Below are positions 787 through 29,158 of a stretch of DNA of 64,000 nt, piece after piece. This DNA is from an uncultured Solirubrobacterales bacterium (lineage in GTDB: Bacteria > Actinomycetota > Thermoleophilia > Solirubrobacterales > Solirubrobacteraceae). Location of the stretch: positions 524 through 64,523 of the forward strand of contig CAVWOK010000010.1 of the NCBI GenBank assembly GCA_963756585.1, written 5' to 3'. Each line of letters starts with the position of its first letter. Positions within the stretch are counted from its first letter, which is position 1. Under the pieces are notes generated by a model. That model did not search any database, had not been told where the DNA came from, and was given only the letters and a program-made list of their open reading frames with translations. A program made the position numbers and the translations under genes.

Positions 787-1887
787 TCAGCTGGCGTGCC
801 ACGCCGCACGCGCAGCACGTAATGCAGAGTCCAGCTTGCCGGCGTTCCCAGACCCGAGCGCCTCGAGGGCCTCGGCCAGCGCGATCAGCGCGATCAGCAC
901 ATCAGCCAACGCAGCCTGGCGGCCGGTGTGACTGATCCGGACGGCATCCGCGTCAAGCACGCTGGGGGCTCGCTCGACGATGCTTGAGTGCGCATCGTCA
1001 GCGGCCTGAACCAGCGAGGCGGCCGTGATCCCATCCGGCGCGTGCACCAGTGTGGCTACTGCGGCCCTGTCAGCAGCGATCGGTACCCAGGGCCGGAGAC
1101 CGAGCTCCTCCGCGCCGGCCTGGCTCGCGGCTGCCGCGCGCTGGTGTCTTCGCACCACCGCGGCCAAACCCTCCCCCAACGCTCGATTCACCGCCGCCGC
1201 CAGGGCACGTGTCTCCAGTATGGGCAGATAACCCGGGATCGCCGACCGCTTGGAGTCGATCCACGCCTCCTTCCAGTCGAGCAACGACAATGACGATCGT
1301 CGTATCGCGGGGGACCGGGACCGAAACACATCCCAAGCTTGACTGCTCACCGTGACGGCAGACAGGCCACACGGTCCGGCAAGGGCCTTGTGAGCTCCAA
1401 CCGCGCACACGTCGATGCCCCACGTGTCGAGCTCCAGCCGCTCCGCCCCGACCGATGCCACGGCGTCAACAACTACCAGAGCGCCATGTCGACGAGCTGC
1501 CTCGGATATCGCCTGCAGACCATTGACCACCCCGGTCGCTGCCTCGGCATGCACGACGCATACGAGGTCAAATGACCCTGCCGCCAACGCTTGAGTGACC
1601 TCTCCGGTCAAAACGCCTCGATCGAACTCCACGGCAACCTCGACCACGTCACAACCGGCTCGGCTCAGCCATTCACCAAACAGCCGTCCGTATGGACCGG
1701 TCACGATGTTGAGCGCGCGTCCCCCCGGGCGCCCCAGACCAGCGGCCGCCGCCTCCAGCGCCAATGTCGCCTCCGCGGGGACGAGCACCACGTCCTGGCC
1801 GGTCGCGAGCAGTTCCGAAATCGAGCGCTCCAGTCGGACCACCTCGGCAGCGGTGAGCGGCGGAGGGTCGAGCAGCAGAGAGCTCAT
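787..1887 (-). CDS. Class V PLP aminotransferase, divergent pyridoxamine-pyruvate transaminase-like paralog
   Basis: 'LALEAAAAGL', 'VVDAVASVG', PLP-Lys motif 'GAHKALAGPCG' and 'SLSLLDWKEAW' parallel the 8971..10167 protein. Lacks the N-terminal TLTAGP segment. Confidence 0.75.
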   Translation of the reverse strand: MSSLLLDPPPLTAAEVVRLERSISELLATGQDVVLVPAEATLALEAAAAGLGRPGGRALNIVTGPYGRLFGEWLSRAGCDVVEVAVEFDRGVLTGEVTQALAAGSFDLVCVVHAEAATGVVNGLQAISEAARRHGALVVVDAVASVGAERLELDTWGIDVCAVGAHKALAGPCGLSAVTVSSQAWDVFRSRSPAIRRSSLSLLDWKEAWIDSKRSAIPGYLPILETRALAAAVNRALGEGLAAVVRRHQRAAAASQAGAEELGLRPWVPIAADRAAVATLVHAPDGITAASLVQAADDAHSSIVERAPSVLDADAVRISHTGRQAALADVLIALIALAEALEALGSGNAGKLDSALRAARAAWHAS

Positions 1888-3005
1888 TCGGCCGCGCTGT
1901 TCGCGCTCAGCGCCGGCATTGCCAGCTGATCGCGGAAGTGGCAGGCCGATAGATGCCGCGCATCTCCGTGGACCGGTCCGAGTTCCGGATCATCCGTGCT
2001 GCAAATCCTCTCCGCGAGCGGGCATCGTGGATGCAGGCGGCATCCATCCGGGATCGCGGACGGGCTCGGAGGCTCTCCATGCAATGCCAACCGAGCAGCA
2101 TCCGGAGCATCCGGATCGAGCAGCCTGCTCTCCAATGTCGACTCTCGCCGCGTGGGGACCCAGTCGCCGCGGGCCGCCGGGTCGCGTCGCGCCCACCCGG
2201 CGTTTACAAGGCTCGGTGCCGAGGCCAGCAGGGCCCGTGTGTACGGATGAGAAGGGTGCTGGAACACTTCATCGCGCGCTCCACGCTCAACTATCCGTCC
2301 CAGATACATCACATCGATTTGGTCGCACAGCGCTCTCGTGGCCGCCAAATTGTGCGATATCAGGATCACTCCAATACCCAGCGTCGCGCGAAGCTCGGCG
2401 AACAAGCGCAGTATCGTGGCCTGCACTGACACGTCGAGAGCAGACGTCGGCTCGTCCGCCACGATCACTTGGGGTTCGACCGCGAGCGCCCTTGCGATAG
2501 CCACTCGCTGCCGCTGTCCGCCGGACAGCTCGCGAGGGTACCGCTGCAGCGTCGATGGCGGTAATCCGACCAGGGAGAGTAACTCGCCGCTGCGATCGCT
2601 CGCTTTTTCGCCGCGCCGACCAAAGTGCGCGAACAGCAGCTGGCGCAGCATCGTTCCGATTGTCATCCTCGGGTTTAGCGACGAGGTCGGATCTTGAAAC
2701 ACCATCTGCACAGCCCGGCGCTGACTCGCCGTGCGCTTGGTCGGCAGCGATTGTCCGTGCAGTTGCACAACGCCCTCCGACGCAGGCTGCAGGCCCGCCA
2801 ACACCCGGGCGACCGTCGTCTTGCCGCACCCCGATTCCCCCACCAGGCCGAGAGCCTCGCCGGTACCGAGGTCGAGGTCGACGCCATCGACCGCGACAAC
2901 GTCGCGGCGCCTGCGGGCCCGGAACACGACCCGCAGTCCCGTCGCCCCCAGCAGTGGGGCGCCCTTGGTCGAGGGAGCTCCAAGCCGACTATCCACGGCG
3001 GTCAA
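1884..3005 (-). CDS. Dipeptide/oligopeptide ABC transporter ATP-binding subunit (DppF/OppF-like)
   Basis: Walker A GESGCGKTT, LSGGQRQR, Walker B VADEPT, and C-terminal 'GCRLHPRCP' oligo_HPY domain. Confidence 0.93.
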   Translation of the reverse strand: MTAVDSRLGAPSTKGAPLLGATGLRVVFRARRRRDVVAVDGVDLDLGTGEALGLVGESGCGKTTVARVLAGLQPASEGVVQLHGQSLPTKRTASQRRAVQMVFQDPTSSLNPRMTIGTMLRQLLFAHFGRRGEKASDRSGELLSLVGLPPSTLQRYPRELSGGQRQRVAIARALAVEPQVIVADEPTSALDVSVQATILRLFAELRATLGIGVILISHNLAATRALCDQIDVMYLGRIVERGARDEVFQHPSHPYTRALLASAPSLVNAGWARRDPAARGDWVPTRRESTLESRLLDPDAPDAARLALHGEPPSPSAIPDGCRLHPRCPLAERICSTDDPELGPVHGDARHLSACHFRDQLAMPALSANSAAE

Positions 3006-4006
3006 AGCGTCACCAGTGCATGCCGGCGGCAGGCGGTGGCGTGCGGACTGCCCTCGGTTTGGAGCTCAACGAGCGGTACGGGCCCGGTCGTGCAGGCGAG
3101 TTCGGCCAGGTAGCATCGAGGAGCGAACGGACAGCCGTGTCCACGGCGCGCTGGATCCGGCAGTCTCCCCGGGATCGACTCTGGCATGACGACCGGGCCG
3201 GCGACGTCGGGCGTGGCGTGAAGCAGGCCGACTGTATAAGGGTGCCTCGGGCGATGGAGAATCGCGTCGACCGACCCCCGCTCGACGACGTCTCCGCTGT
3301 ACATCACGACGACAGAATCGCATACGTCCCCGATCACAGCCAGGTCGTGGCTCACCAGCACGATCGCGACACCGAGGGTCTCACGCAGTTCGTCCAGGAG
3401 CGCCAGGATCTCGGCCTGGATGGTCACGTCCAGCGCAGTCGTCGGCTCATCGCACAACAGCACGCGGGGACGCGACGCCAGCGCGACGGCGATCATGACT
3501 CGCTGGCGCAGCCCTCCCGAGAGCTGGTGAGGATAGGCTCCGAGGCGGTCTTCCGGATCAGGTAGCCGGACCATCCGGAGGAGCTCGATCGTGCGCTGCC
3601 GCGCCGTCGCGCGCGATAGACCCTCGATCCGCCGGGGCACCTCGGCAACCTGATCGCCGATCGTCATCACCGGATCGAGCGCGGCGAGCGGATCTTGGAA
3701 GATCATCGCAAGCCGGCCGCGGCGAGCCTTTCCGAGCCGGTTACCCCGAAGCGGCAGCGCTTCTCCAGAGAAGGTGATCTCACCACTGGCCTCAAGGCCG
3801 GACGGCAGGATTCCCATGATCGCCCGCAGCAGCAGAGTCTTCCCCGATCCCGACTCACCGACGATGCCCAACGACCGTCCGGGCGCGACCTCTACGTGCA
3901 CTCGCCGCACCAGGTCGACGGAGGGCGCGCTCTTCGTCGAGACCCTCACCAAAGCCGAAAGCGCAGCCTCGCCGTTTGCTTCAACAATCGTCGCGGCTGG
4001 TCTCAT
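3002..4006 (-). CDS. Dipeptide/oligopeptide ABC transporter ATP-binding subunit (DppD/OppD-like)
   Basis: GESGSGKT, LSGGLRQR, LCDEPTT and 'GCPFAPRC'. Start moved to ATG 4006, which overlaps the upstream stop (TGATG). Confidence 0.92.
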   Translation of the reverse strand: MRPAATIVEANGEAALSALVRVSTKSAPSVDLVRRVHVEVAPGRSLGIVGESGSGKTLLLRAIMGILPSGLEASGEITFSGEALPLRGNRLGKARRGRLAMIFQDPLAALDPVMTIGDQVAEVPRRIEGLSRATARQRTIELLRMVRLPDPEDRLGAYPHQLSGGLRQRVMIAVALASRPRVLLCDEPTTALDVTIQAEILALLDELRETLGVAIVLVSHDLAVIGDVCDSVVVMYSGDVVERGSVDAILHRPRHPYTVGLLHATPDVAGPVVMPESIPGRLPDPARRGHGCPFAPRCYLAELACTTGPVPLVELQTEGSPHATACRRHALVTL

Positions 4007-4896
4007 CAGGGCCGCAACACGTCGGCGAGGCCATCGCCGATCAGCGACAGGCCGAGCCCAGTCACGACCACGGCCAAACCCGGAATCGTCGCCAGTGCCC
4101 AGTGCGTGGTTATGAACTGCTGACCATCGGAGATCATCGTTCCCCAATCGGGCGTAGGCGGCTGCACTCCCAAGCCCAAATAACCGAGCGTTACGACCGC
4201 GACAATGATCAGCACTATGTCTGACATCGCATATACCAGACCCTGCGCGACAACGTTCGGCAGCACGTGGCGCAGGAGGACGCTCCTTTCCGGCAGACCT
4301 CCGCCACGCGCCGCTGCGACATAGTCAAGCTGCGACACGGTCAGGGTCGCGCTCCGGACCAGCCGGGCATAGACCACCCAGTCGACGAGGGCAACCGCTA
4401 CAAAGACGCCAGTGACTCCGGGCCCGAACACGAACACCAGCGCGATCACCAGAACGTAGAACGGGAAGGCCAAGACAACATCGACTACCCGCATCGTAAG
4501 CCAGTCGAGCCGACCTCCAACCGAGCCGGCGATCAGTCCGATCAGACTGCCCGCGAAAAAGGGCACAACCACTGCACCGAAGCCCACCGCCAAATCGATG
4601 CGGGCCGCGTACAGTAATCTACTCAGCACATCTCGGCCGAGGTCATCGGTGCCGAGTAGGTGGGCTGAGGACGGGCCTGCGAGGATGTGCGAGAGATCTT
4701 GCTGATCGGGAGGATACGGACTGATCACTGGCGCGAGCAGCGCAAGGAGGACGATTACGCTTGTGATCACCAGTCCCGCGATCAGCACCCGCGACCGGCG
4801 GGCGCGGGCCACGAACCTGGCGTCACGTCCAGCGTCGCGGCCCTCGGCGTCGGACTCATCGTGAAGCCCGGCGAGTGGCGGCAGTGCGGTGCTCAT
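4006..4896 (-). CDS. Peptide/nickel ABC permease (DppC-like)
   Basis: 'HLLGTDDLGRDVLSRLLY', EAA-like loop 'YVAAARGGGL...LRHVLPN', multiple TM segments. Confidence 0.93.
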   Translation of the reverse strand: MSTALPPLAGLHDESDAEGRDAGRDARFVARARRSRVLIAGLVITSVIVLLALLAPVISPYPPDQQDLSHILAGPSSAHLLGTDDLGRDVLSRLLYAARIDLAVGFGAVVVPFFAGSLIGLIAGSVGGRLDWLTMRVVDVVLAFPFYVLVIALVFVFGPGVTGVFVAVALVDWVVYARLVRSATLTVSQLDYVAAARGGGLPERSVLLRHVLPNVVAQGLVYAMSDIVLIIVAVVTLGYLGLGVQPPTPDWGTMISDGQQFITTHWALATIPGLAVVVTGLGLSLIGDGLADVLRP

Positions 4897-5828
4897 GCGA
4901 GCCGGGCCCTCGGATCCAGCGAGGCGACGACCAGATCGGTCACCAGGGTGACCACGACGACCGCGACCGCGAACACGAGCGTCACGCCCTGTACGACCGG
5001 AAAGTCCCGATTCGAGATCCCGGTGAGCATCAGCTGACCGAGCCCGTTGAGCGCGAACACCTGCTCGATCACCACCGTGCTCCCGATCAGGTAGGCGATG
5101 TTCACGCCGAGCAGCGTCACGGTTGGAATCGCGGCGTTGCGCACCACATGGACCAGCAGTACCCTCAGCCTCCCCAGACCCTTCCCGCGCGCGACTGCGA
5201 CGAAGTCCGCGTCCAGGATGTCGAGCATCCCGGAGCGCAAGCTGCGCACGAGTATCGGCGTGATCGCCAACGCGGCGGTTAGCCCCGGCAGGATCAGCGA
5301 GCGAACGTGGCCGACAAAGCCCGTGCCCCAGCCGCCCACTGGCACTAGATGCAGGCGGACGGCGAAGATCTCGATCGCCACGATTCCGATCCAGAATGAC
5401 GGCATCCCGAGGCCAATCAGCGGCACCGTGCGGATCACGTGGTCACTCGCGCGGCCATGCCGGCTCGCGGCGATTGACGCCAACGGCACGGTAATCAGTA
5501 CCGCAAACAGCGCTGCCACGGCGACCAACGAGGCGGTTACCACGATCCGCTGCCGGATCAGCTCAGCGGTCGAGACGCCGTAGAAGAGAGAGTGGCTCAG
5601 GTTCCCATGGGCGAGTCCGTCAAGAAAGTGCACCAGCTGAGTCGGCAGCGACTCCGACAGCCCCCACCTCCGCTGCAGGGTAGCCACCGCCTCCGGTGTG
5701 GCGTGCTCCCCCAGCACCGCGCGCGCTGGATTGCCGGGCAGGAGGTGTAGGAGCAGAAACGTCGCGACGCAGACGCCGAGGATGACGCCGACGCTACCGA
5801 CCAGGCGCCGAGACGCGTAACGCACCAC
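4893..5828 (-). CDS. Peptide/nickel ABC permease (DppB-like)
   Basis: 'LLPGNPARAVLG', 'FVAVARGKGL...HVVRNA' and terminal 'LDPRARL'. Confidence 0.93.
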   Translation of the reverse strand: MVRYASRRLVGSVGVILGVCVATFLLLHLLPGNPARAVLGEHATPEAVATLQRRWGLSESLPTQLVHFLDGLAHGNLSHSLFYGVSTAELIRQRIVVTASLVAVAALFAVLITVPLASIAASRHGRASDHVIRTVPLIGLGMPSFWIGIVAIEIFAVRLHLVPVGGWGTGFVGHVRSLILPGLTAALAITPILVRSLRSGMLDILDADFVAVARGKGLGRLRVLLVHVVRNAAIPTVTLLGVNIAYLIGSTVVIEQVFALNGLGQLMLTGISNRDFPVVQGVTLVFAVAVVVVTLVTDLVVASLDPRARLA

Positions 5829-5834
5829 CCGCGG

Positions 5835-7478
5835 TCAGTCCAGCCAGACGTCCTCGAGCCGGTAGGCGCCCCCGGGATTCACCGCGAACCCGTGCACGCT
5901 CGAACTCGTCGCAAACAAATATGGCTGGTAATCGAGCGGCACGTACGGCACCTCGGCCGCCACGATGCCCTGGATCTGTGCGTACAGCTTGGCCCGTTCC
6001 GCATCGCTCGAGGCCCCTTCGGCCTGGACGATCAGCCGCGTCACCGCCGGATTGTTGTAGCTCGACCAGTACGACGAGGATCCACCGTTCTTGTAGTTCA
6101 GGTTGAAGTTCGCCATCTCGTCCGGATCGCTGATGTCGTTGATCGCGTAGTCGATGAACATCTCGTAATCAAACTTTTGAAAGGTGGTCTCGAAGGAGGC
6201 GTGGTCTAGCGAGTTGATCGATACGTTGATCCCGATCTGCTTGAGATCCGCCTGGATGATCTGAGCGATCGTCGCATATTTCGCATCGCCGGCCGACACC
6301 AGCAGGGTCGTGTCAAAGCCGTGCGGATACTTCGATTTCGCCAGCTCCGCCTTTGCCGCGGCAACGCTGTACGGAAGGACGGGTGTTTTGGGATCGAAGA
6401 ACTCCAAGCTCGATGGCAGAAAGGAGGTCGCCGTCGTGGCGGTGCCGAACGTGGATGCTTGTGTCAGTTTCTTCAGATTTATCGCCTGGTAGATCGCGCG
6501 GCGCACGTGCATGTCGGCAAACTTCGGGACCTTCTCGTTGAAGACGAGCACGTCGACCTCCCATGCGGGCCACGACGACGCTTGCACGCCCGAGGCCGCC
6601 TTGAGACTGGCATACTCCGCGGGCGGCACCGCGTCGATGACGTGGACCTGTCCGCCCTTGATCTCGAGAATCCGCTGGTTGTCATCTGTGACATAGGTGA
6701 TGACGACCTCCTTGACGTACGGCCGGCCGGTCCGCCAGTAGCCAGGGTTCGCCTTGAGGTTCAGGGTCGCGCCTTGCGAGAACGCGGGGAGGAGGAACGG
6801 CCCAGTCCCAACCGGCGCGGCGAAGAAAGCCTTCTCGCTCTTCCCCCCGAACTTGGCGGGGATGATCGCGTTCGCGAACACCGAGATGTCCGACAGAAAT
6901 GGAGCCCATGGCTGACTGAGCTTGAACACCACCGTCCCCTGATCGGGCGTCGAGACCGACTTGATCGCCTCGTCGAGGAACGTCAGCGGCCCAGCGGAGT
7001 TGTGGCGAGCTCGATTGATCGAGAAGGCCACGTCCTTGGACGTCATCGGCGTGCCATCTGAGAACTTCACGCCTGGCCGCAGCCGGAAGGTCCACGTCAG
7101 CTGATCCGAGCTCACCGTGTGACCGGACGAGAGCCAAGGCTGCAGCTTCCCGGCGACATCGGTGATGTACAGCGGCTCAAAGATCTTGTCCAGCGTGTAT
7201 ATGTCACCGGCGATGATCGTATTCGCGGGGTCGAGCGTCGTGGGCTCAACGCTGCGAGCAAACTTCAGAGTTCCACCCTTCTTGGGAGCCGAGCTCGCCC
7301 CAGCCGTCGTTGAGCTGGAGGAGCCCCCGCATGCTGCAAGCACCGGCGCCGACATCAGAACCATCGCGCCGCCCGTCGACCATCGCAGGAACGACCGGCG
7401 GCTGATCTCGGGAGCGTTCATTGATGTCCCGGACGCGTCCGGCAGAAACGGTGAGCCAGCGGGTGAACCGGTCGGCAT
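5835..7478 (-). CDS. ABC substrate-binding lipoprotein, family 5 (DppA-like), Tat/lipoprotein signal
   Basis: 'SRRSFLR' twin-Arg, 'LAAC' lipobox, 'WTFRLRPGVKFSDG' and 'PVGTGPF'. RBS AAGGAG precedes ATG 7478. Confidence 0.9.
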   Translation of the reverse strand: MPTGSPAGSPFLPDASGTSMNAPEISRRSFLRWSTGGAMVLMSAPVLAACGGSSSSTTAGASSAPKKGGTLKFARSVEPTTLDPANTIIAGDIYTLDKIFEPLYITDVAGKLQPWLSSGHTVSSDQLTWTFRLRPGVKFSDGTPMTSKDVAFSINRARHNSAGPLTFLDEAIKSVSTPDQGTVVFKLSQPWAPFLSDISVFANAIIPAKFGGKSEKAFFAAPVGTGPFLLPAFSQGATLNLKANPGYWRTGRPYVKEVVITYVTDDNQRILEIKGGQVHVIDAVPPAEYASLKAASGVQASSWPAWEVDVLVFNEKVPKFADMHVRRAIYQAINLKKLTQASTFGTATTATSFLPSSLEFFDPKTPVLPYSVAAAKAELAKSKYPHGFDTTLLVSAGDAKYATIAQIIQADLKQIGINVSINSLDHASFETTFQKFDYEMFIDYAINDISDPDEMANFNLNYKNGGSSSYWSSYNNPAVTRLIVQAEGASSDAERAKLYAQIQGIVAAEVPYVPLDYQPYLFATSSSVHGFAVNPGGAYRLEDVWLD

Positions 7479-7601
7479 TATGCCTCTCCTTCTTTGCGTT
7501 GGCCAAGCCAACTCGTAAACACTGAATGGGCAGGCGTCCGCTTAACGTCGTCCGCCTCGAGCGATCGGTCGACCAGCGTCCCGCGCGCGGTGCGGCACGG
7601 C

Positions 7602-10707: not shown

Positions 10708-10722
10708 CGCTGATAATACTCT

Positions 10723-10884
10723 TGTTGACAGTTCACAGCCGACGCTTGACCGGACCGGCGCGTGGCCCCCGAGCGCTCCGAGCGCCCAGCGCATCGTTCA
10801 TTAAGACTGGATGGAGCTTGCTTGACGTCGTCATCGAGCCAACTATATGGTCCTGTTGACAGTCCACAGCACACAGCCGACGCT
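10723..10884 (+). promoter_or_regulatory. Divergent promoter region with duplicated operator-like motif TGTTGACAGTYCACAGC
   Basis: Copies at 10723-10746 and 10854-10884. TTGACG(10822)-18 nt-TATGGT promoter lies immediately upstream of the second copy. Confidence 0.6.
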
Positions 10885-10928
10885 AGCCAGCGATGCGCTG
10901 CGTGAGTTTCCACCCAGGAGGAGTTGGG

Positions 10929-12014: not shown

Positions 12015-12059
12015 GTCACGTCGGAGTCCGCGTCGCCGCTCGCCGAGCCAGATCCGACC

Positions 12060-19723: not shown

Positions 19724-19728
19724 AGCTG

Positions 19729-20181: not shown

Positions 20182-22478
20182 CGGTCATCGAGCGGCCCGC
20201 GCTGCGCGAGGTCGGAACTTCGCGACCGCGCAAGGACGCGCGCGAAAAGCTATCGGGCGAGGCTCAGTTCGTGGGCGACATGGAGGTCGCCGGGATGCTG
20301 CACGGCAGCGTCGTGCGCAGCCCGTATGCCCACGCCCTGATTCGCGGCATCGACTCAAGCGCAGCCCTCGAGCGCGACGGAGTCGTTGCCGTGCTGACCA
20401 GCGCCGACCTCCAGGACATCGAGCCCTATTACGGCCACGCCATCAAGGACCGGCCGATCGTGGCGCTGGACCGGGTTCGATTCGCCGGTGAGCCCGTCGC
20501 CGCTGTAGCGGCGGTCGACGAAGCGACCGCCGAGGCGGCGGTGCGCGCGATCGAGGTCGACTACGAGCCGCTGCCGGTGCTGGACACCCTCGATCTGGCC
20601 CTGTCGCCTGGAGCTCCGCGGCTGCACGACCGCCGCCCGCAAATCGGCCTGTTTCACGGCCTCGGAGAGCTCGGCGAGGAGCAGGGCAACATCTGCTACC
20701 GCCACCTGATCTCCGCCGGGGACATCGATCAAGCCCGTGCGGAGGCGTCGATCACGGTGGAGGGGGAGTACCTATTCCCCGCCGTTTACCAGTACGCGAT
20801 GGAGACCCACGCCACGATCGCCCATTACCACGGCGACGGAGTGACCCTGTGGGCCAACTGCCAGCACCCATTCCTTGTCCAGGCCGAGATCGCGGACCTG
20901 TTCGGTCTGGAGATCGGACAGGTCCGGATCATCGTCTCCTACCTGGGCGGCGGCTTCGGCTCGAAGTCCTACACGAAGATCGAACCGCTGACCGTCGCCC
21001 TGGCGCGCAAGGCGGGACGGCCGGTGAGGATCGTCAACCGGGTCGAGGAGTCGATGGTGACTTCGCGCCGCCACGGAATGCGCTGCTGGATGCGCACCAG
21101 CGCTGCGGCCGACGGAAGGTTGCTGGCGCGCGAGGTGAACTTTTGGATGGACACCGGAGCTTATGCCGACAATGGGCCGCGGGTGACGGCCACGGCCGCG
21201 GACGCCGCGCCCGGCCCGTACCGCTTCACAGCTGTCGAGGTGGACGGCAACTGCGTGTACTGCAACACCCCCCCGTCGGGCTCCTACCGCGCATTCGGTG
21301 CCACCCATCTGCAATGGATCGGCGAGTCGCAGCTCGACGAGGTGGCGCGACGGGCGGGCCTCGACCCGTTGGAGCTGCGCCAGCGCAATCTGGTGGTGAC
21401 CGGTGATCCGGTCCGGCCCGACGGCAGCGGCAAGCCGCTCGACGCAGACCTGATCGGCGACGTCGAGCGAGCGGCCTTGGGGGTCGGCTGGGATGAGCCC
21501 AGACGACCATGGGTGGGTCGCGGGGTCAGCGTAGGGTTGCTGGCCGCCGGGGCCCACCCGGTCTCGCGGGCCTCGGTCCGTCTGTGCTCGGATGGGTCGG
21601 CCGACGTGTACGTGGGGACCACCGAGCTTGGACAGGGGCCCCGCACGGTCATGGCTCAGATTGCCGCCGAGGAGATCGGAATCACCAGCGACCTCGTGCG
21701 CGTCCACGGCGCCGACACCCGGTTCACTCCGTACGACCGCTCGACCGGCGCCAGCCGTTCGACGACGATTGCCGGCCTGGCGGTCAAGCGCGCCGCCAAT
21801 GCCGTGGCCGACCGTCTGCGCGAGACGGCGGCCGAGGCGTGGGACGTCGAGCCCGAAGTGGTCGAACTTACGGGCGGGCGGGCTGAGTTCGCCGGCGAGG
21901 AGATCTCATTCGAGGACCTGATCTTTCGACGGTTTGGGTTCCGCGGCGGGGAGATCATCGAAGGCGGCGAGGTCAGGCCCACCGGAGGCGACACCGGGTC
22001 ATACGCGGAGGGCCCGCATTTCTGGGAAGTTTGCGTCGCGGGCGCTGAGGTCGAGGTGGACCCGAACACAGGCGTGGTTACGGTTTTGCGCACGTCGACC
22101 GTCGCCGACGTCGGCAAGGCGATCAACCCGCAGCTTGTCGAGCGCCAGGACGAGGGCGCGACCCTCCAGGGCATCGGCAACGCGCTGTTTGAGGAGATGC
22201 GGTTCGACGGTGGCCAGGTCGTCAACGACAGCCTGCTCGAGTATCGGGTCCCGCGGATCGCCGACCTGCCTCGCGAGATGACCTCGATCATCGTCGAGAA
22301 TGAAGACGGCCCTGGACCGTACGGCGCCAAGGGATGCGGCGAGGGTGCATTTGCGGCGGTGCCCGCGGCCATCGTCTGCGCGCTGGCCGACGCGGGGGTG
22401 CCGATGAATGAGTTGCCGCTGACCCCCGAGCGCGTGTGGCGCCGGATCCAAGAGCTGTCGAAGGTGCCAACCCCCTGA
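20178..22478 (+). CDS. Molybdenum hydroxylase large (MoCo-binding) subunit, xanthine dehydrogenase family
   Basis: 'RSPYAHA', 'AMETH', 'LGGGFGSK', 'YRAFG', 'GTTELGQG' and 'GAKGCGE'. Confidence 0.95.
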   Translation: MTVIERPALREVGTSRPRKDAREKLSGEAQFVGDMEVAGMLHGSVVRSPYAHALIRGIDSSAALERDGVVAVLTSADLQDIEPYYGHAIKDRPIVALDRVRFAGEPVAAVAAVDEATAEAAVRAIEVDYEPLPVLDTLDLALSPGAPRLHDRRPQIGLFHGLGELGEEQGNICYRHLISAGDIDQARAEASITVEGEYLFPAVYQYAMETHATIAHYHGDGVTLWANCQHPFLVQAEIADLFGLEIGQVRIIVSYLGGGFGSKSYTKIEPLTVALARKAGRPVRIVNRVEESMVTSRRHGMRCWMRTSAAADGRLLAREVNFWMDTGAYADNGPRVTATAADAAPGPYRFTAVEVDGNCVYCNTPPSGSYRAFGATHLQWIGESQLDEVARRAGLDPLELRQRNLVVTGDPVRPDGSGKPLDADLIGDVERAALGVGWDEPRRPWVGRGVSVGLLAAGAHPVSRASVRLCSDGSADVYVGTTELGQGPRTVMAQIAAEEIGITSDLVRVHGADTRFTPYDRSTGASRSTTIAGLAVKRAANAVADRLRETAAEAWDVEPEVVELTGGRAEFAGEEISFEDLIFRRFGFRGGEIIEGGEVRPTGGDTGSYAEGPHFWEVCVAGAEVEVDPNTGVVTVLRTSTVADVGKAINPQLVERQDEGATLQGIGNALFEEMRFDGGQVVNDSLLEYRVPRIADLPREMTSIIVENEDGPGPYGAKGCGEGAFAAVPAAIVCALADAGVPMNELPLTPERVWRRIQELSKVPTP

Positions 22479-22492
22479 ACAAGGAAGCGACT

Positions 22493-23419
22493 ATGAGCGT
22501 GAGCGAACCGAGCCGGGCCACAATTCTCGGAACGGGCACGATGGGCCCAGGCATGGGCGCTGTCCTCGCCCGGGCCGGTATGCCGGTGACACTGTTCGAC
22601 GTCAACTCCGAAGCGCTCGACCGCGCCAAAGTCACGGTGGGCATGGTCGAGGGAGTGCTCGACCGGCTCGAGGTCCCAGTGCGTGACGGCGGCGGCCTTG
22701 CCTACGAAACCGATCAGCCGTCGGCACTCGATGGGGCCGAGATCGTGGTCGAGGCGATCCCCGAGCAGATCGAGCTCAAGCGTCAGGTGTTCGCAGAGAT
22801 CGAGGATCAGATCTCTGCCGAGGCGATCATCGCCTCCAACACGTCAGGCATCCCGGTGACCAAGCTCGCCGAGGGACTGAAGCATCCCGAACGGGTGATC
22901 GGCTGGCACTGGTCGAACCCGCCGCATCTGATCCCCATGAACGAGGTGATCCCCGGCGAGCAGACCGCTCCCGAGGTCACGAGCGCGATCGAGGCCCTCA
23001 CCCGGCGGATCGGCTATCACCCGGTGACGCTGAAGAAGGAGGCCCCGGGATTCGTAGAGAATCGGGTGCTGTACGCGATCATGCGCGAGTGCCTGGCGCT
23101 CGTGGATGAGGGCGTGATCGACGTCGAAGGCCTCGACCTGTGCGTGAAATGGGGGATCGGCTACAAGCTCGCGGTGGTGCCGCCGATCCAGCTGCTCGAC
23201 ATGGCCGGGCTGGACATCTACACCAGCGTGGCCAGCTATCTCAACCAGTCGCTCTCAAACGAGACCGGGGTGTCCAGCACGGCGACCGGACTCAAGGAGG
23301 ACGGGCGGCTGGGGATCAAGACCGGCGGGGGCTTCTTCGACTACACGCCAGAGCGAGTCAAGGAGCTTGGACAACAACGGGCTGCGGCCCTGGTGGCCGT
23401 ACGAAAGGCACTGGACTGA
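22493..23419 (+). CDS. 5-formyl-3-hydroxy-2-methylpyridine-4-carboxylate 5-dehydrogenase (3-hydroxyacyl-CoA dehydrogenase family)
   Basis: 'GTMGPGM', 'HWSNPPH', 'PGFVENRVLYA', 'WGIGYKLAV' and 'LLDMAGLDIY' match M. loti FHMPCDH as recalled. Confidence 0.82.
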   Translation: MSVSEPSRATILGTGTMGPGMGAVLARAGMPVTLFDVNSEALDRAKVTVGMVEGVLDRLEVPVRDGGGLAYETDQPSALDGAEIVVEAIPEQIELKRQVFAEIEDQISAEAIIASNTSGIPVTKLAEGLKHPERVIGWHWSNPPHLIPMNEVIPGEQTAPEVTSAIEALTRRIGYHPVTLKKEAPGFVENRVLYAIMRECLALVDEGVIDVEGLDLCVKWGIGYKLAVVPPIQLLDMAGLDIYTSVASYLNQSLSNETGVSSTATGLKEDGRLGIKTGGGFFDYTPERVKELGQQRAAALVAVRKALD

Positions 23420-23422
23420 ACG

Positions 23423-24214
23423 ATGGCAAAGGCAACGAAGGTACGGCTGCTCGACAGCGGAACGCTGGTGATCGACCAGTCACATATCACCTGGAACATC
23501 GGCTGCGGCACGCCGGTGCGCTTTCCGGTGTACAGCGTGCTCATCGAGCACCCTGACGGGCTGTTCATGTTTGACAGTGGCTATGACCTCGATCTGGTCA
23601 ACGCGATGCTGCCGTTTGAGTTGCCCGAGCAGACGCCGGACCAGACCGTTGCCTCCCAGCTGGACAAGTGTGGCTTCAAGCCCGCGGACGTCGGCGCGCT
23701 GATCAACTCGCATCTCCATTTCGATCACTGCGGCGGTAACAAACAGCTCGCCAACGCGGTGACCTACCTGCATCGCGAAGAGCTCCGCGAGGCGCGCTCA
23801 CCGGAGCCGTTTGAGCGGCTGGGGTATGCGGATAAGGGGTACGACCATCCCGATTCGAGGTTTGAGCTGCTCGACGGCGACGTGTTGTTCGCCGACGGCG
23901 TTCATCTGTTCCACACCCCGGGCCACACGGTGGGCCACTACTCGATGCTCATCGAGCTCGAAGGCAGCCATCCCCTGCTGTTCATGGCCGATGTCTCCTA
24001 TACCAAGACGGCGTTTGAGCACGACCAGCAGGCTGGCTTTCACAACAATCCCGTCGATGGCGTTCGCTCCATCGCCCGGATCAAGCGCCTGGCTAAGGAG
24101 TGGGGCGCCGAGGTCATCTTCACCCACGACATGGATGCGTTTAGGTCCTATGCGCTGGCGCCCGAGCCGTTTACCGGCAGCCGTGCACTCTCGGCTGCGG
24201 GAGGCGGCGCATGA
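23423..24214 (+). CDS. 4-pyridoxolactonase (metallo-beta-lactamase fold)
   Basis: 'VRFPVYSVLIEH', 'LPFELP', 'NSHLHFDHCGGNK', 'PFERLGY', 'GFHNNPVDGV' and 'HDMD' match M. loti lactonase as recalled. Confidence 0.85.
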   Translation: MAKATKVRLLDSGTLVIDQSHITWNIGCGTPVRFPVYSVLIEHPDGLFMFDSGYDLDLVNAMLPFELPEQTPDQTVASQLDKCGFKPADVGALINSHLHFDHCGGNKQLANAVTYLHREELREARSPEPFERLGYADKGYDHPDSRFELLDGDVLFADGVHLFHTPGHTVGHYSMLIELEGSHPLLFMADVSYTKTAFEHDQQAGFHNNPVDGVRSIARIKRLAKEWGAEVIFTHDMDAFRSYALAPEPFTGSRALSAAGGGA

Positions 24215-24942
24215 AGCTCGAGGGAAGAGTGGCCATCGTCACCGGAGCGGCGCAGGGAATCGGCAAAGCGATCGCCGACAAGCTGCACGCCGAAGGCGCG
24301 CGCGTAGCCATCGTCGATCTGAACGGCGAGGGCGCGGAGGCTGTGGCGTCGGGGCTCAACGGCCTGGCGATCCAGGCGGACATCTCCAGCGAGACCGATG
24401 CCGAGCGCATGGCGCAGGAAACGCTCGATCGCTATGGCAAGATCGACGTGCTCGTCAACGCTGCGGCGATCGTGCCCTTCATCCCCTGGGACGAGGTCGA
24501 CTTCGCCTACTGGCGGAAATTGCTGTCGGTCAATCTCGACGGTGCATATCTCGTTTCCCGCGCCGTCGAACCGCCGATGCGCGAGGCGGGCTACGGCCGG
24601 ATCGTGCAGATCGCCTCCAACGCGTTTCTGGCCGGGACGCCGAACATGGGGCCTTACCTGGCCTCCAAGGGCGGGGTGGTGGGGCTCACCCGGGCGCTGG
24701 CGACCGAGCTGGGCAAGTACGGCATCACCGCCAATGCGGTGGCACCGGGCATCACCAGGACCGAGGGGGCGCTGGCCACGCCGCACAAGGATTCATTCGA
24801 CTTTGTGCAAGCGCTGCAGGCGATTCCGCGCCACGGACTCCCAGAGGACATAGCGCCGGCCGTCGCTTTTTTGGCCTCCGAGGAGTCAGGCTGGGTCACG
24901 GGCCAGGTCCTGGTCGCCGACGCCGGGCACATCCGCGACTGA
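24211..24942 (+). CDS. Pyridoxal 4-dehydrogenase (SDR)
   Basis: 'TGAAQGIGKAIA', 'IVPFIPWDEVD', 'IASNAFLAGTPNM..Y..SKGGV' and 'ALATELGKY' match M. loti PLDH as recalled. Confidence 0.85.
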   Translation: MKLEGRVAIVTGAAQGIGKAIADKLHAEGARVAIVDLNGEGAEAVASGLNGLAIQADISSETDAERMAQETLDRYGKIDVLVNAAAIVPFIPWDEVDFAYWRKLLSVNLDGAYLVSRAVEPPMREAGYGRIVQIASNAFLAGTPNMGPYLASKGGVVGLTRALATELGKYGITANAVAPGITRTEGALATPHKDSFDFVQALQAIPRHGLPEDIAPAVAFLASEESGWVTGQVLVADAGHIRD

Positions 24943-25340
24943 TGGCGGTGGACGTCGCCCGCGCCGGCGTGATCCTGGCGGTGTCCGACTTCGCGCGCTC
25001 GGTGGCCTTCTACCGCGACCAGCTCGGCTTTGAAGTCGAGGCGGAGTACGACGATCCGCCGTATGCGACGCTGGACAGAGCCGGCATGCGTCTCTCGCTG
25101 GCCGAGCAGGGCCACCCGGCCGAGGACCGGCCGGGGGTGGAGATGGTGGCTCCCTCGGACCCGTCGCGGTTGCCCGCGATCCTGGTACTCGAGGTGAGCG
25201 ACTGTCTGCGCAGTTTTCGCGAGCTCAGCGCGGTCGGCGTGCCGTTTCTGGCCGACCCCTACTCACCACCGTGGGGAGGCCACCGTTGCTTTGCTATCGA
25301 TCCGGACCGCAACCTGATCGAACTCGAGGAGCCGGCGTGA
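24942..25340 (+). CDS. VOC/glyoxalase family protein
   Basis: 'VSDFARSVAFYRDQLGF' and 'PPWGGHRCFAIDPDRNLIEL'. ATG overlaps the upstream TGA. Confidence 0.85.
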   Translation: MAVDVARAGVILAVSDFARSVAFYRDQLGFEVEAEYDDPPYATLDRAGMRLSLAEQGHPAEDRPGVEMVAPSDPSRLPAILVLEVSDCLRSFRELSAVGVPFLADPYSPPWGGHRCFAIDPDRNLIELEEPA

Positions 25341-26374
25341 GAGCGGTCAAGCTGGTCGGCATCGAAGCCATCGAGGTCCGGGACGTGGCCGACCCTCGGC
25401 TTGAAAGCGACACCGACGCGATCGTTCGCGTCACCCACACGGCGATCTGCGGCGCGGACCTGCTCCCGTACCACGGCTACACGCCCGGATTCGAGCTGGG
25501 GACGACCCTCGGCCACGAGTTCGTCGGGGTGGTGCAGGATGCGGGTGATGCCCTGGGGGATTGGGCCTCCGGTCAGCGTGTCGTCAATACCAGCATGACC
25601 TCCGATGGCACCTGTGCCCACTGCCGCGCCGGGCGGCCGACGCAGTGCGCATCCCGAGCGATGTTCGGGTACTCCGGGGTGTATCCGCGCCTGGAGGGAG
25701 GCCAGGCGGACTTGGTACGCGTTCCCCAGGCCGACCGTTGTCTGTGGCCGGTTCCCGACGATGTCGCCTCGGAGGACGCGGTGTTCGTCGCCGACATCCT
25801 CCCCACCGGCTTGCTCGCCGTTCAGCGGGCCGGCGTGGCCGCGGGGGACGTGGCCGTTGTGCTCGGCTGCGGCCCCGTGGGGCTGATGGCGTTGATCTGC
25901 GCGGTCGGGAACGCGCGGCGGGTGATCGCGGTGGACGGGATTCCCGCCCGGCGCAAGCTGGCGGACGCGCTGGGTGCTCTGGCGGTTGATCCTTCGGGCG
26001 CTCCGGAAGCGGTTCTGGCTTCGACCGGAGGCCTCGGTGCCGATGCCGTGATCGAGGCCTCGGGCGCGCCGGCGGCGTTGAGCGCGGCCCTGGACCTGGT
26101 GCGGCCGCAGGGCGTGATCTCCGTCGTCGGGGCCCACTTCGAGCCAGATTTCCCCCTCAACAACGGCCTGATGTTCGAAAAGGAGATCACGCTGGCCTTC
26201 GCGATTGGCAATCCGGGCCGCGACCGGGAGCGGCTGCTCGCGATGATCCAGGAAGGCGCCTTGCGGCCCTCGGCGGTGATCAGCGACACGATGGGGCTCC
26301 AGGACGCGCGGGACGGATACCGGGCCTTCGACGCGCGCGAGGCGACAAAGGTCGTTTTGACAACGTCGGGATAG
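25337..26374 (+). CDS. Zn-dependent alcohol dehydrogenase (MDR)
   Basis: 'ICGADL', 'LGHEFVG', 'CAHCRAG..TQC' and 'GCGPVG'. Confidence 0.9.
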   Translation: MRAVKLVGIEAIEVRDVADPRLESDTDAIVRVTHTAICGADLLPYHGYTPGFELGTTLGHEFVGVVQDAGDALGDWASGQRVVNTSMTSDGTCAHCRAGRPTQCASRAMFGYSGVYPRLEGGQADLVRVPQADRCLWPVPDDVASEDAVFVADILPTGLLAVQRAGVAAGDVAVVLGCGPVGLMALICAVGNARRVIAVDGIPARRKLADALGALAVDPSGAPEAVLASTGGLGADAVIEASGAPAALSAALDLVRPQGVISVVGAHFEPDFPLNNGLMFEKEITLAFAIGNPGRDRERLLAMIQEGALRPSAVISDTMGLQDARDGYRAFDAREATKVVLTTSG

Positions 26375-26392
26375 CCGGCAGTTGAGGACGTG

Positions 26393-27097
26393 ATGAAACG
26401 TTGTGCTCTGGTGACGGGCGCCTCGAGTGGAATCGGGCTTGCCCTGGCGCGGATGCTTGCCACCGAGGGATACGGGGTGACGATCTCGGCGCGGCGCGCC
26501 GAGCGCCTGCGTGAGATCGCCGACGCCGGCGAGGGGCGGCTGTTTGCCGTTGCTGCCGACGTGGCCCGGGAGGAGGACGTGGTGAGGCTCGTGCAGGCCC
26601 ACGCCGAACGGTTCGGACGGCTCGATGTGTTGGTCAACGCCGCCGGGATCGCCGGGGCGAAGCCCTCGGACGCGGCCGACACGGCGGAGGTCGATCGCCA
26701 GGTCGCGGTCAATCTGCGGGCCCCGCTGCTCGTCACCCGGGAGGCGCTCCCCTGGTTACGCAAGGCCGGCGCCGAGCACGGCAAGGCACTGGTCGTCAAC
26801 ATGTCCTCGGTGGCCGGAAAGGAGGGCCAGCCGGGCAACACGATCTACTCGGCCACCAAGGCCGGCCTGATCTCGCTCACGCAATCGCTTCAGCGCGAGA
26901 CGGCCGCCGACGGAATCCAGGCCACCGCCGTGTGCCCGGGGCTGGTGGCCACGCCGATGACCGCTGACTCGTCCGTCCCCCAGGGAGAAATGGTCTCCCC
27001 CGATGACGTGGCCGAGGCGATGCGCTTCCTGCTGCGCACGTCAACCTGGTGCCTGGTCCCCGAGATCGTGCTCAATCGGCGAGGTGCCGTCGGGTGA
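26393..27097 (+). CDS. SDR family oxidoreductase
   Basis: 'TGASSGIG', 'VNAAG' and 'YSATK'. Confidence 0.9.
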   Translation: MKRCALVTGASSGIGLALARMLATEGYGVTISARRAERLREIADAGEGRLFAVAADVAREEDVVRLVQAHAERFGRLDVLVNAAGIAGAKPSDAADTAEVDRQVAVNLRAPLLVTREALPWLRKAGAEHGKALVVNMSSVAGKEGQPGNTIYSATKAGLISLTQSLQRETAADGIQATAVCPGLVATPMTADSSVPQGEMVSPDDVAEAMRFLLRTSTWCLVPEIVLNRRGAVG

Positions 27098-28709
27098 CCC
27101 GCGATCGTCCCGACGTGCTGATCATCGGCGCCGGCCCCTCGGGCGCCGTCACCGCGCGCCACCTGGCCGAGCACGGGTTCTCGGTGGTCTGCCTCGAGCA
27201 GGGCCGCTGGATCAACAACACCGACTTTCCCGGTGACAAGTTCGACTTCGAGCTGCAGGCGCTGAAACGGTGGAGTCACGACCCCAACGTCCGCCAGCTC
27301 GACGAGGACTACCCGTGTGAGGTGAGCAAGGCCGAAGTTCACCCGGTCATGTACAACGCCGTCGGCGGCGGGAGCATCCACTACGGGGCCCAGTGGCCGC
27401 GTCACCTGCCATCCGATTTCCGCGTTCGCACGCTCGACGGGGTGGCCGACGACTGGCCGCTCACCTACGAGGATCTGGTCCCGTTCTACGAACAGAATGA
27501 CATCGATCTCGGGGTATCGGGGATGGCGGGTGACCCCGCCTATCCCGACGGCGCCCCGCCGCCGCTGCCGGCCCTGCCGATCAACAGGTACGGACGAAAG
27601 TTCGCCCAGGGGCTCAACGCCCTGGGCTGGCATTGGTGGCCGGCGCCGAACGCGATCGCCTCACGCGACTATCGAAACCTGGGAGCCTGCGCACGCTACG
27701 GCACCTGTGAGAACGGCTGCCCCAACGGCTCCAAGGCGTCAGTCGACATGACGCACTGGCCCGAGGCTCAGCGCCACGGCGACGCGGGTGATCACCGGCG
27801 CGCGGGTACGAGAGATCACCACCGACGAGCGTGGCCTGGCCACCGGGGCCATCTACATCGATCGCCACCACGTCGAGCACCATCAGCCGGCCAGCACGGT
27901 GGTGTTGGCCGCCAACGGCGTGGGAACACCGCGGCTGCTGCTGCTGTCGCGCAGCGCACGCTTCCCCGAGGGGCTGGCGAACGGGTCGGGATTGGTCGGT
28001 AAACGGCTGATGCTGCACCCGACGAGCCTGCTCGTCGGTGTCTTTGACGAGGCACTCGACAGCTGGCTCGGGCCGGCCGGGCAGAACGTGCACTCGATGG
28101 AGTTCTACGAGAGCGATCCCGCGCGGGGCTTCGTCCGCGGTGCCGACTGGAAGACGATGCCCACCGGCGGCCCGCTGATGGCGCTCCTGTTCGGCGTGCT
28201 CGACGGTTCACCGGCCTGGGGCGAGGGGATGTATGACGTGATCCGCAGGACGCTCGGCCATTCGGTCGCGGTGGCCATCGTCAGCGAAGACCTGCCATCG
28301 GTCGCCAATCAGGTCTCGCTGGATCCGAACCTGGCCGACTCCGACGGGGTACCGGCGCCGCACATCGAATACCGGCGCGAGCAGAACAACCTCGAGCTGC
28401 TCGCTTGGCACATCGACCGCACCCGTGAGGCGCTCGAGGCGGCAGGCGCGACACGTGTGCTCGTGGAGCCGATCATGCCCGAGCAGCCGGGTCACCTGCT
28501 GGGCACGGCGCGGATGGGAGACGATCGTTCCTGCTCTGTTGTGGATCCAGTTCGGGCGCAGCCACGAGGTGCCCAACCTGTTCATCGTCGACGGGTCGAT
28601 CTTCGTGACCAGCGGCGGCGTCAACCCCACCAACACGATCGGTGCGCTGGCGCTCCGCTGCGCCGCCCATATCGTCAGCACGGCCCGTCTGCAGGCGGTC
28701 CCGGCATGA
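27094..28709 (+). pseudogene. GMC oxidoreductase with two +1 frameshifts (pseudogene or assembly error)
   Basis: 'IIGAGPSG' FAD motif, 'AVGGGSIHY', 'HLLGTARMG' and 'HEVPNLFIVDGSIF...NPTNT' lie in three frames. Shifts near 27782 and 28550. Confidence 0.85.
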
Positions 28710-29158
28710 GTGCGGCCGCGCTTCCGTCAGATCAGCAGGTGGCGATGTTGCGTCGCCTCGGTGACACGCTGGTCCCGGCCGTGGACGGAATGCCGTCGTT
28801 TTCGGAGGCCGACAAGTCGGGGCGCTTTCTGAGCAGGGCCTTCGAAGCGCTGCCACACTTCGCTGTGCTGGTGCTGGCCGCCGCCGACGGGCTGGGGGCG
28901 CAGGCGCCGTTGGACTACCTGCGACGGCTGGAGGCCGAACAGCCTGACACCTTCGCGGCGCTCCACCTCACGCTGGTCGGCGCATACCTGGTCAATCGCC
29001 GGGTTTGGAGGCGGCTCGGCTATCCGGGACGAAAGCCCACGCCGGTGCTCGACGATGAGGCAGAGTTCTTTCTCGAGGGTGGCCTGCTCGAGCCGGTTAT
29101 CGCCCGAGGTCCGATCTACCGGCCTACGCCTCGCAGTCGAGCCGCCGCCGCCGAGTGA
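28706..29158 (+). CDS. Small partner subunit of GMC dehydrogenase (gluconate 2-dehydrogenase subunit 3-like)
   Basis: 'LGDTLVP...PS', 'GAYL...VWRRLGYPG' and 'GPIYRPTP'. ATGA overlap with the GMC stop. Confidence 0.65.
   Translation: MSAAALPSDQQVAMLRRLGDTLVPAVDGMPSFSEADKSGRFLSRAFEALPHFAVLVLAAADGLGAQAPLDYLRRLEAEQPDTFAALHLTLVGAYLVNRRVWRRLGYPGRKPTPVLDDEAEFFLEGGLLEPVIARGPIYRPTPRSRAAAAE

Follow-up and report, generated by a model that had tools for sequence, protein, structure and literature searches.

A probable second type of vitamin B6 catabolic operon, with a candidate ring-opening module of its own, in an uncultured Solirubrobacterales bacterium

The 64,000-nucleotide stretch of DNA analyzed here (the window; C10:524–64523) belongs to an uncultured Solirubrobacterales bacterium whose genome is assembled as 5.29 Mb in 27 contigs (92% complete, 2% contaminated), and contains an operon whose genes point to the catabolism of vitamin B6. 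Open reading frames (ORFs) were called with guidance from GC content at third codon positions and scanned against Pfam and NCBIfam, revealing two divergent arms that flank a control region at ~10.7–10.9 kb of the 64-kb window. The plus arm (10893–26374) is a single tightly coupled gene string beginning with a Bmp-type importer and proceeding through a GntR-FCD regulator, a luciferase-like (LLM) oxidoreductase, an M29/NicX-like protein, a cupin, a class II aldolase-fold protein, the 2Fe-2S and large subunits of a molybdenum (Mo) hydroxylase, FHMPC dehydrogenase, 4-pyridoxolactonase, pyridoxal 4-dehydrogenase (PLDH) and a VOC protein to a Zn-dependent alcohol dehydrogenase (Zn-ADH), with gene junctions mostly showing a 1–13 nt overlap or a 3–5 nt spacing. 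The minus arm holds a small secreted protein, pyridoxamine-pyruvate aminotransferase (PPAT), the FAD subunit of the Mo-hydroxylase and, beyond a 585-bp gap, an Opp-type ABC transporter and a class V aminotransferase paralog. An earlier note on this DNA had proposed a B6 catabolic cluster combining the upper part of the Mesorhizobium loti pathway with a different, undescribed lower branch. Pfam, NCBIfam and PDB matches located every gene it named, namely PPAT, PLDH, the lactonase, FHMPC dehydrogenase, an aldolase fold, a GntR regulator and importers, and also the LLM and M29-fold proteins, the cupin, the three-part Mo-hydroxylase and the VOC protein to which it had assigned the lower branch.

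The B6 cluster of M. japonicum MAFF303099 (L081; mll6785–mlr6807), reached through PDB alignment, served as the comparison set, and four enzymes anchor the window to it. PPAT (8971–10167, minus strand) is 44.7% identical to the M. japonicum enzyme and matches PDB entry 2z9u at E 2e-98, the next match lying at 9e-43; NF046070 is by far its best family, although its 434 bits fall under the cut-off of 600. PLDH, an enzyme of the SDR type (24211–24942; this and all following operon genes are on the plus strand unless stated otherwise), matches 3ndr at 3e-78 (next 1.5e-54), and 4-pyridoxolactonase (23423–24214) matches 3aj3 at 2e-75 (next 1.5e-33), both passing their equivalog cut-offs of 325 bits (NF047923 at 370 bits and NF047925 at 357 bits, respectively). 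FHMPC dehydrogenase (22517–23419), 52% identical to the M. loti enzyme, matches 4om8 at 1e-94 (next 4e-40), and its NF042925 score of 407 bits is under that family's cut-off but far ahead of any other family. All four anchors have an M. loti enzyme as their top PDB match, with the next match worse by 24 to 55 orders of magnitude, and at 45–52% identity the four are reciprocal best matches, genome-wide, for the L081 proteins. The class II aldolase-fold protein, which the earlier note listed beside these four, does possess the fold but makes a poor fifth anchor, sharing just 28% identity with the M. loti decarboxylase HMPDdc.

The likeness to the rhizobial cluster extends to uptake and control. 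The Bmp/PnrA-type ABC importer (10893–15807) consists of a substrate-binding protein (SBP, 10893–12014), an ATPase (12060–13658) and two permeases (13655–14851 and 14848–15807), and its SBP scores 387 bits against NF047927, 'putative B6 ABC transporter SBP' (cut-off 400). The M. japonicum B6 cluster has a Bmp/PnrA-family ABC transporter of its own (L081 14324–19032), orthologous to the window importer and 43–56% identical to it, so that Bmp-type B6 uptake is supported in both lineages. The GntR-FCD regulator (15804–16535; PF00392 and PF07729) is PyrR-like, the best match in the genome to mll6786 (PyrR) at 35% identity. Common to the two systems are therefore PPAT, PLDH, the lactonase, FHMPC dehydrogenase, the importer and the regulator, for all of which the predicted roles are shown by homology.

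The remainder of the M. loti pathway is conspicuously missing. The window operon is without pyridoxine 4-oxidase (PNOX, mll6785), the GMC-type 4-pyridoxate dehydrogenase (4-PADH, mlr6792), the FAD monooxygenase MHPCO, the alpha/beta-fold AAMS hydrolase (AAMSH) and mlr6789/6790, and contains instead the Zn-ADH, the three-subunit Mo-hydroxylase, the LLM and NicX-like proteins, the cupin and the VOC protein. In the bacterium's own 92%-complete genome the best match to MHPCO reaches only 27% identity and 78 bits, compared with 245–286 bits for the anchors, and the best match to AAMSH is a 63-bit fragment. A search of 29 other operon-carrying genomes likewise found no MHPCO ortholog (best match 31% identity, 94 bits); counting the bacterium's own, 30 genomes were covered, of which 14 have no MHPCO match at all at E ≤ 1e-5. 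With PNOX, 4-PADH and probably HMPDdc added, the genome's sole HMPDdc-like gene being the aldolase-fold protein (28% identity, 78 bits), the enzymes without orthologs here number five, rather than two, out of nine in the M. loti pathway. The claim that the upper pathway is kept accordingly stands for the four anchors but not in full, because 4-PADH has been replaced as well. Almost no room is left for a missing pair just upstream of the window, as only 523 bases of the contig precede it. A candidate for a hidden B6 locus was set aside: the unlinked, GntR-controlled cluster at C11:97000–113000 (L091) encodes two GMC oxidoreductases, one of them 43% identical to mlr6792, along with a DUF6282 protein, an RraA-like protein, a two-domain VOC protein and a SnoaL-like protein, and proved to be a different catabolic cluster devoid of MHPCO and AAMSH. 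Plasmid tblastn matches to FHMPC dehydrogenase, collected in a search for annotated rhizobial B6 clusters, were all at or below 39.5% identity and are not orthologs.

Conservation of the operon was followed by scanning GTDB with an alignment of two FHMPC dehydrogenases, from which the closest 80 loci (59–90% identity) were retained, with no Mesorhizobium locus among them. These derive from Solirubrobacterales, Thermoleophilaceae, Gaiellales, Acidimicrobiia and metagenome-assembled genomes (MAGs) of Chloroflexota, and essentially every sufficiently long one is collinear, in the order (GntR), LLM, NicX-like, cupin, aldolase, 2Fe-2S, Mo large subunit, FHMPC dehydrogenase, lactonase, PLDH, (VOC), (Zn-ADH). 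The VOC gene is kept in 69 of the 80 loci and Zn-ADH, the last gene of the operon, in ~66, and the PPAT/Mo-FAD pair and the Bmp transporter are found nearby in related loci; in three loci (L024, L032, L071) some operon members are degraded or missing. Because the order is the same in essentially all 80 loci, the LLM, NicX-like, cupin, aldolase and Mo genes are to be regarded as a fixed part of the operon, whose conservation spans three or more classes and whose overlapping starts and stops indicate translational coupling. MHPCO, PNOX, 4-PADH, mlr6789 and mlr6790 are all without a homolog within 10 kb of FHMPC dehydrogenase in the same 80 loci, and AAMSH has just two spurious matches of ~55 bits. 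Distribution at closer range is uneven, with 34 of 401 genomes from the bacterium's class (20 of 120 genera) carrying the NicX-like gene and none of six sampled congeners doing so, the latter marking it as a patchy accessory trait.

Taken together, the gene content makes it probable that this is a second, undescribed type of operon for catabolism of vitamin B6 (pyridoxamine/pyridoxal), in which the ring is opened without MHPCO and AAMSH. The undescribed lower branch of the earlier note is in this sense supported, and none of the three observations that it named as refuting was made: no MHPCO/AAMSH pair was found elsewhere in the 92%-complete genome, the extra genes are not lost from syntenic clusters but collinear with FHMPC dehydrogenase, lactonase and PLDH, and the anchors resemble the M. 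loti enzymes strongly (E 1e-75 to 1e-98). Full-text literature searches turned up no account of a B6 pathway that relies on a Mo-hydroxylase. The lower route appears to be new, and the chemistry proposed for it draws on the enzymes considered below.

Most informative among these is the NicX-family/M29-fold metalloenzyme (hereafter NicXl, 17572–18600), which in the earlier note was an M29-fold hydrolase. When its sequence alone was used to search PDB by phmmer no match was returned, but a profile built from 44 diverse family sequences retrieved NicX (7cn3) at E 1e-29 over its full length, while the M29 peptidases matched the profile at 3e-16 at best (PepS), and only over the C-terminal half (residues 152–314). 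The AF2 model of NicXl (pLDDT 95) gave the same ranking in Foldseek, with TM-scores of 0.73–0.76 for NicX and 0.61–0.69 for M29 peptidases, and relatives of NicXl carry the precomputed Pfam label PF26233, 'NicX'. By fold and profile, then, the protein is closest to NicX, and yet its metal site is of the peptidase type. The mononuclear Fe(II) site of NicX is formed by His265, Ser302, His318 and Asp320, all of them essential (PMC7910607), and these align with E271, A297, H315 and D317 of NicXl, so that two of the iron ligands are replaced by Glu and Ala. Conversely, NicXl keeps the five M29 dimetal ligands E202, E271, H295, H315 and D317 at the ligand positions of PepS, where NicX has F, H265, L300, H318 and D320 (in addition to S302). 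These ligands are invariant or nearly so in the family, E271 and H295 being invariant in the 44 members. As for substrate-binding residues, His105 of NicX corresponds to H111 of NicXl, E183 is shifted by one position from Glu177, and His189 is matched by Pro196. The combination of a NicX architecture with a peptidase-type two-metal site favors hydrolysis, and NicXl may on this basis be a hydrolase.

Comparison with the two families clarifies what is shared and what is not. NicXl resembles NicX/Hpo of the Pseudomonas putida nic maleamate pathway (PMC7910607, PMC3831237) in fold and length (about 345 aa); the nic pathway, like the one proposed here, has a Mo-hydroxylase upstream, and the NicXl substrate would likewise be of the 2,5-dihydroxypyridine type. 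Equivalents of NicC, NicD, NicF and NicE are, however, absent from the B6 operon. In common with the M29 aminopeptidases AmpS, AmpT and PepS (about 410 aa) NicXl has a C-terminal catalytic domain and all five metal ligands, but it is ~70 residues shorter and its context is catabolic, not proteolytic. NicX, a mono-iron dioxygenase, proves to be part of a wider family that retains a peptidase-like two-metal site.

All three subunit types of a xanthine oxidase-family Mo-hydroxylase are present. The FAD subunit (8096–8974, minus strand; PF00941 and PF03450) overlaps the PPAT stop by 4 nt and adjoins PPAT in Chloroflexota loci too, and the 2Fe-2S subunit (19729–20181; PF01799 and PF00111) is followed by the molybdopterin large subunit (20178–22478; PF01315, PF02738 and PF20256). 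The latter matches 4-HBCR alpha (8e-96) and 6-hydroxypseudooxynicotine dehydrogenase (2e-80) in PDB, followed by CODH, Qor, XDH and NDH, and hydroxylase/XDH-type models outscore aldehyde oxidoreductase (PaoC-type) models. The LLM protein (16528–17568; PF00296) was correctly noted as present, but its designation as a monooxygenase is doubtful, since F420-type matches are best: its best NCBIfam families are F420 subfamilies (TIGR03619 at 119 bits), all of them under cut-off, and its only sequence match in PDB is Mer (2e-16). A fold search placed Mer and FGD1 first, with RutA and luciferases scoring nearly equal, so that F420 and FMN types were not separated. A cofE gene scores above cut-off in 11 of 15 operon genomes as well as in the bacterium's own. 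The operon hosts probably belong to F420-making phyla, and the LLM protein is likely to be F420-dependent, judging by its sequence relatives.

The smaller proteins are less readily placed. The monocupin (129 aa, 18588–18977; PF07883, 52 bits), whose gene overlaps the NicXl stop by 13 nt, keeps the motifs H-x3-E-E and W-H-x-V-x-N in 65 orthologs. The class II aldolase-fold protein (18974–19723; PF00596), a candidate HMPDC decarboxylase, retains the HxH...H triad, its N-terminus not being conserved among orthologs, and is nearer in PDB to pyruvic oxime dioxygenase (POD; 8ix6, E 9e-32) than to HMPDdc (Mlr6791, 2z7b; 1e-15). It shares fold and His triad with HMPDdc (2z7b), POD (8il8/8iqa/8ix6) and the PhtC decarboxylase, and its gene occupies a matching operon position, directly upstream of oxidase and FHMPC dehydrogenase genes as in the M. 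loti cluster, but decarboxylase and oxygenase are not separable by sequence. At 28% identity, and with POD the nearer relative, it is probably not an HMPDdc ortholog; nor is it a member of the POD clade, which is characterized by mutual E-values below e-60 and a conserved N-terminal helix (PMC11841055). Completing the set are the VOC/glyoxalase-fold protein (132 aa, 24942–25340; PF00903, 58.7 bits) and the Zn-ADH (25337–26374; PF08240 and PF00107), a candidate 4-pyridoxate 5-dehydrogenase. The operon's B6 genes are covered by NCBIfam models, but its NicX-like, cupin and VOC proteins are not.

Parts of this gene set also recur away from B6 genes. The Mo-hydroxylase/NicXl pair is found in at least two other subfamilies, accompanied in one of them by the cupin. 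In four Thermoleophilia genera (L101–L104), NicXl relatives of 50–54% identity lie in a distinct conserved cluster encoding a UbiD decarboxylase, a DHO_dh-like flavoprotein, a Mo-hydroxylase accompanied by maturation genes (YqeC/MobA/XdhC), an unknown protein of 301 aa, the NicX-like protein, a cupin and an M20 amidohydrolase; the cluster probably serves to break down another N-heterocyclic carboxylate. A single-protein metagenome scan gave 9 loci. NicXl relatives at ~33% identity adjoin Mo-hydroxylase large subunits, in one locus (L082) together with LLM, VOC and Amidohydro_2 proteins, and another relative neighbors Amidohydro_2 and cupin genes. The constant partner of NicXl is the Mo-hydroxylase, often with the cupin, while the decarboxylase (UbiD or Amidohydro_2 in the other clusters) and the candidate ring reductase (DHO_dh-like or LLM) are exchangeable, which ties the NicX-like enzyme to the product of Mo hydroxylation.

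From these elements a route may be drawn. B6 would be taken up by the Bmp-type importer, and PPAT, PLDH and the lactonase would convert the vitamer to 4-pyridoxate, from which Zn-ADH, standing in for the GMC-type dehydrogenase, would produce FHMPC. FHMPC dehydrogenase would then form 3-hydroxy-2-methylpyridine-4,5-dicarboxylate, to be decarboxylated by the aldolase-fold protein in HMPDdc's place. The three-subunit Mo-hydroxylase is suggested to hydroxylate C6, the sole free ring carbon and alpha to the nitrogen, yielding a 6-pyridone of the 2,5-dihydroxypyridine type, a step with a chemical precedent in the C2-hydroxylating 6-methylnicotinate oxidoreductase. Opening of this ring may fall to the NicX-family protein and its partner cupin. 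The order we prefer is hydroxylation, reduction and hydrolysis, whereby the F420-type LLM enzyme would reduce the pyridone, NicXl would hydrolyze the lactam at its peptidase-type dimetal site, and the open-chain product would pass to the cupin and VOC proteins and perhaps also to the PPAT-like aminotransferase. That B6 is opened in this manner without any ring-cleaving oxygenase, by a Mo-generated 6-pyridone, F420H2-dependent LLM reduction and dimetal NicX/M29 lactam hydrolysis, and that Thermoleophilia and Chloroflexota use one module of Mo-hydroxylase, NicX-like hydrolase and cupin, with a reductase and a decarboxylase that can be exchanged, for several N-heterocycle pathways, is put forward tentatively, as a proposal that may well turn out otherwise.

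The same chemical logic has known counterparts. Nicotinate fermentation by Eubacterium barkeri employs a Mo nicotinate dehydrogenase, 6-hydroxynicotinate reductase and enamidase, and reductive pyrimidine catabolism is a further precedent of the hydroxylate-reduce-hydrolyze type. Mo hydroxylation next to the nitrogen, ring reduction and metal-dependent cyclic amide hydrolysis, as proposed here, would parallel these two routes and the hxn pathway of Aspergillus nidulans (PMC9304392; for mention of the E. barkeri enamidase see PMC7356986). The parallel is one of analogy only, as the protein families differ at each step past the Mo enzyme, with an F420-type LLM in the window compared with an Fe-S flavoprotein or OYE in those routes, and an M29/NicX fold compared with an amidohydrolase_1 fold. 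An echo of reduction followed by hydrolysis may also be discerned in the L101–L104 cluster, where NicXl is paired with a DHO_dh-like reductase and an M20 amidohydrolase.

Other readings of the lower pathway deserve consideration. In a dioxygenolytic variant, C6 hydroxylation would be followed by O2-dependent cleavage of the substituted 2,5-dihydroxypyridine by NicXl or the cupin, affording an N-acetyl-maleamate-type product that the remaining enzymes deacylate and reduce. NicX is after all the closest solved relative of NicXl in both profile (E 1e-29) and fold (TM-score 0.76), its H105, H318 and D320 are kept as H111, H315 and D317, the para hydroxyl is already in place on B6 so that a single Mo hydroxylation suffices, and one distant NicXl adjoins a maleate-isomerase-like Amdase gene. 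Nonetheless, with two of the four essential iron ligands changed (H265 to Glu, S302 to Ala) and a second metal site, lost in NicX, still in place, with no NicD-like deformylase, NicF-like amidase or maleate isomerase in the operon, and with the paralogous UbiD/DHO_dh/Mo/NicXl/cupin/M20 cluster devoid of a monooxygenase able to make the para-diol, we regard such cleavage as rather unlikely. Still harder to sustain is a like-for-like substitution along the lines of the earlier note, in which the LLM protein is a flavin monooxygenase opening MHPC as MHPCO does, NicXl replaces AAMSH, and the Mo enzyme merely oxidizes an aldehyde. The dimetal hydrolase ligand set of NicXl, the adjacency of LLM and NicXl both in the window and in L082, and the existence of LLM enzymes that open N-heterocycles (PyrA and RutA, the latter among the top fold matches) all speak for it. 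But the best sequence matches of the LLM protein are F420 enzymes, the operon has no flavin reductase, and the Mo large subunit is more hydroxylase-like than PaoC-like. Moreover, Mo-hydroxylase and NicXl recur without LLM, together with the cupin in L101–L104, tying NicXl to the Mo enzyme and not to LLM. F420 enzymes are not known to activate O2, and overall this substitution is improbable.

It may also be asked whether the neighborhood is a composite, its B6 genes serving upper-pathway salvage or detoxification that ends at 4-pyridoxate or MHPC and its Mo, LLM, NicXl and cupin genes serving another N-heterocycle. While the Mo/NicXl/cupin triad does occur without B6 genes, in the window the extra genes are enclosed in the operon, flanked by the regulator on one side and the B6 genes on the other and with stop and start codons overlapping, the gene for the FAD subunit of the Mo enzyme overlaps PPAT, essentially all 80 loci, drawn from several classes, show one unvarying gene order, and an upper pathway halting at MHPC would yield little carbon or nitrogen; a chance association is very hard to credit. 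Returning to a dedicated B6 operon opening the ring without MHPCO and AAMSH, several considerations weigh against it. Sequence alone ties no operon gene to a specific reaction of the lower pathway. The LLM protein is under every NCBIfam cut-off, and its fold fits FMN monooxygenases (RutA, luciferase) about equally. The ring-cleaving oxygenase could instead be the cupin, with its 2-His/Glu-type motif, or the aldolase-fold protein, whose nearest relative is the Fe(II) dioxygenase POD, and the Mo enzyme could oxidize an aldehyde (pyridoxal or FHMPC) rather than C6. At 45–52% identity to their M. loti counterparts, the anchors could act on a B6-like substrate in place of B6 itself, and many of the comparison genomes are incomplete MAGs.

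The operon bears on B6 turnover more generally. To our knowledge, bacterial B6 catabolism is known genetically only from pathway I of M. loti, the genes of other routes being essentially unassigned. Its presence in at least 80 species-level genomes of abundant, poorly cultured soil lineages suggests that the operon could represent a major sink for B6 vitamers in the environment. Five or six candidate new activities emerge: a Mo-hydroxylase for the pyridine ring of a B6 catabolite, a NicX-family enzyme with a dimetal site, an LLM of the F420 type, a small cupin, a small VOC protein and an NAD-type 4-pyridoxate dehydrogenase. Should ring opening indeed be oxygenase-free, it would provide the first function for the dimetal branch of the NicX family.

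The divergent control region contains two copies of a candidate operator, TGTTGACAGTnCACAGC(CGACGCT), i.e. TGTTGACAGTnCACAGCCGACGCT, at 10720–10746 and 10851–10884, 131 bp apart. These are the only two matches in the whole window (0.25 expected), none occurring outside the divergent promoter region, and this repeated motif (10720–10884) is a plausible operator for the GntR regulator. The adjacent small secreted protein (10213–10794, minus strand) is unconserved, and within its ORF three imperfect direct repeats spaced by 24 nt (TGCCGGTGTGGA...GCTGCCGGTG, 10455–10558) code for a repetitive HTGS/PAG-rich segment. At the far end of the minus arm, operon membership is uncertain for the peripheral Opp-type ABC transporter (1884–7511, minus strand) and for the PPAT-like class V aminotransferase paralog (787–1887, minus strand; 40% identity to PPAT, NF046070 at 199 bits), neither of which (787–7511) has a counterpart within 10 kb in the other loci of the 80-locus set.

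On its right-hand side the cluster is shorter than the earlier note had supposed, since the conserved unit stops with Zn-ADH at 26374 rather than extending to 29158, and the SDR, frameshifted GMC oxidoreductase, GMC small subunit and PfkB remnant that follow (26387–29700, plus strand) are unrelated to it. The SDR and both GMC genes are not conserved in the 80 loci, and the GMC oxidoreductase, which belongs to another subfamily, was rejected as PNOX or 4-PADH because it matches neither, is absent from all syntenic loci, lies in a segment duplicated on contig C12 and is frameshifted. Relative to the intact C12 copy (552 aa), the GMC gene (27097–28710) has 1-nt insertions at 27782 and 28550. The PfkB-family kinase remnant (29155–29560) preserves an N-terminal motif and a C-terminal GAGD around a frameshift and a large internal deletion, and the same remnant is found on C12. 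A separate gene, cofE at C17:23547–24291, is split over two frames, so the assembly seems to carry indel errors and apparent pseudogenes here are not to be trusted. C12 itself (35.9 kb) near-duplicates the second half of the contig, covering window positions 26387–44869 (99.6% identity over 18.5 kb, with 18 indels) and 57934–64000 (99.8% over 6.2 kb) with a differing middle section, and could stem from another strain or haplotype or else from genuine duplication. Near its end (34881–35669), C12 carries a second copy of 4-pyridoxolactonase, of 87% amino-acid identity and directly upstream of the SDR and GMC genes, a hint of strain variation or of another B6-type locus that is truncated.

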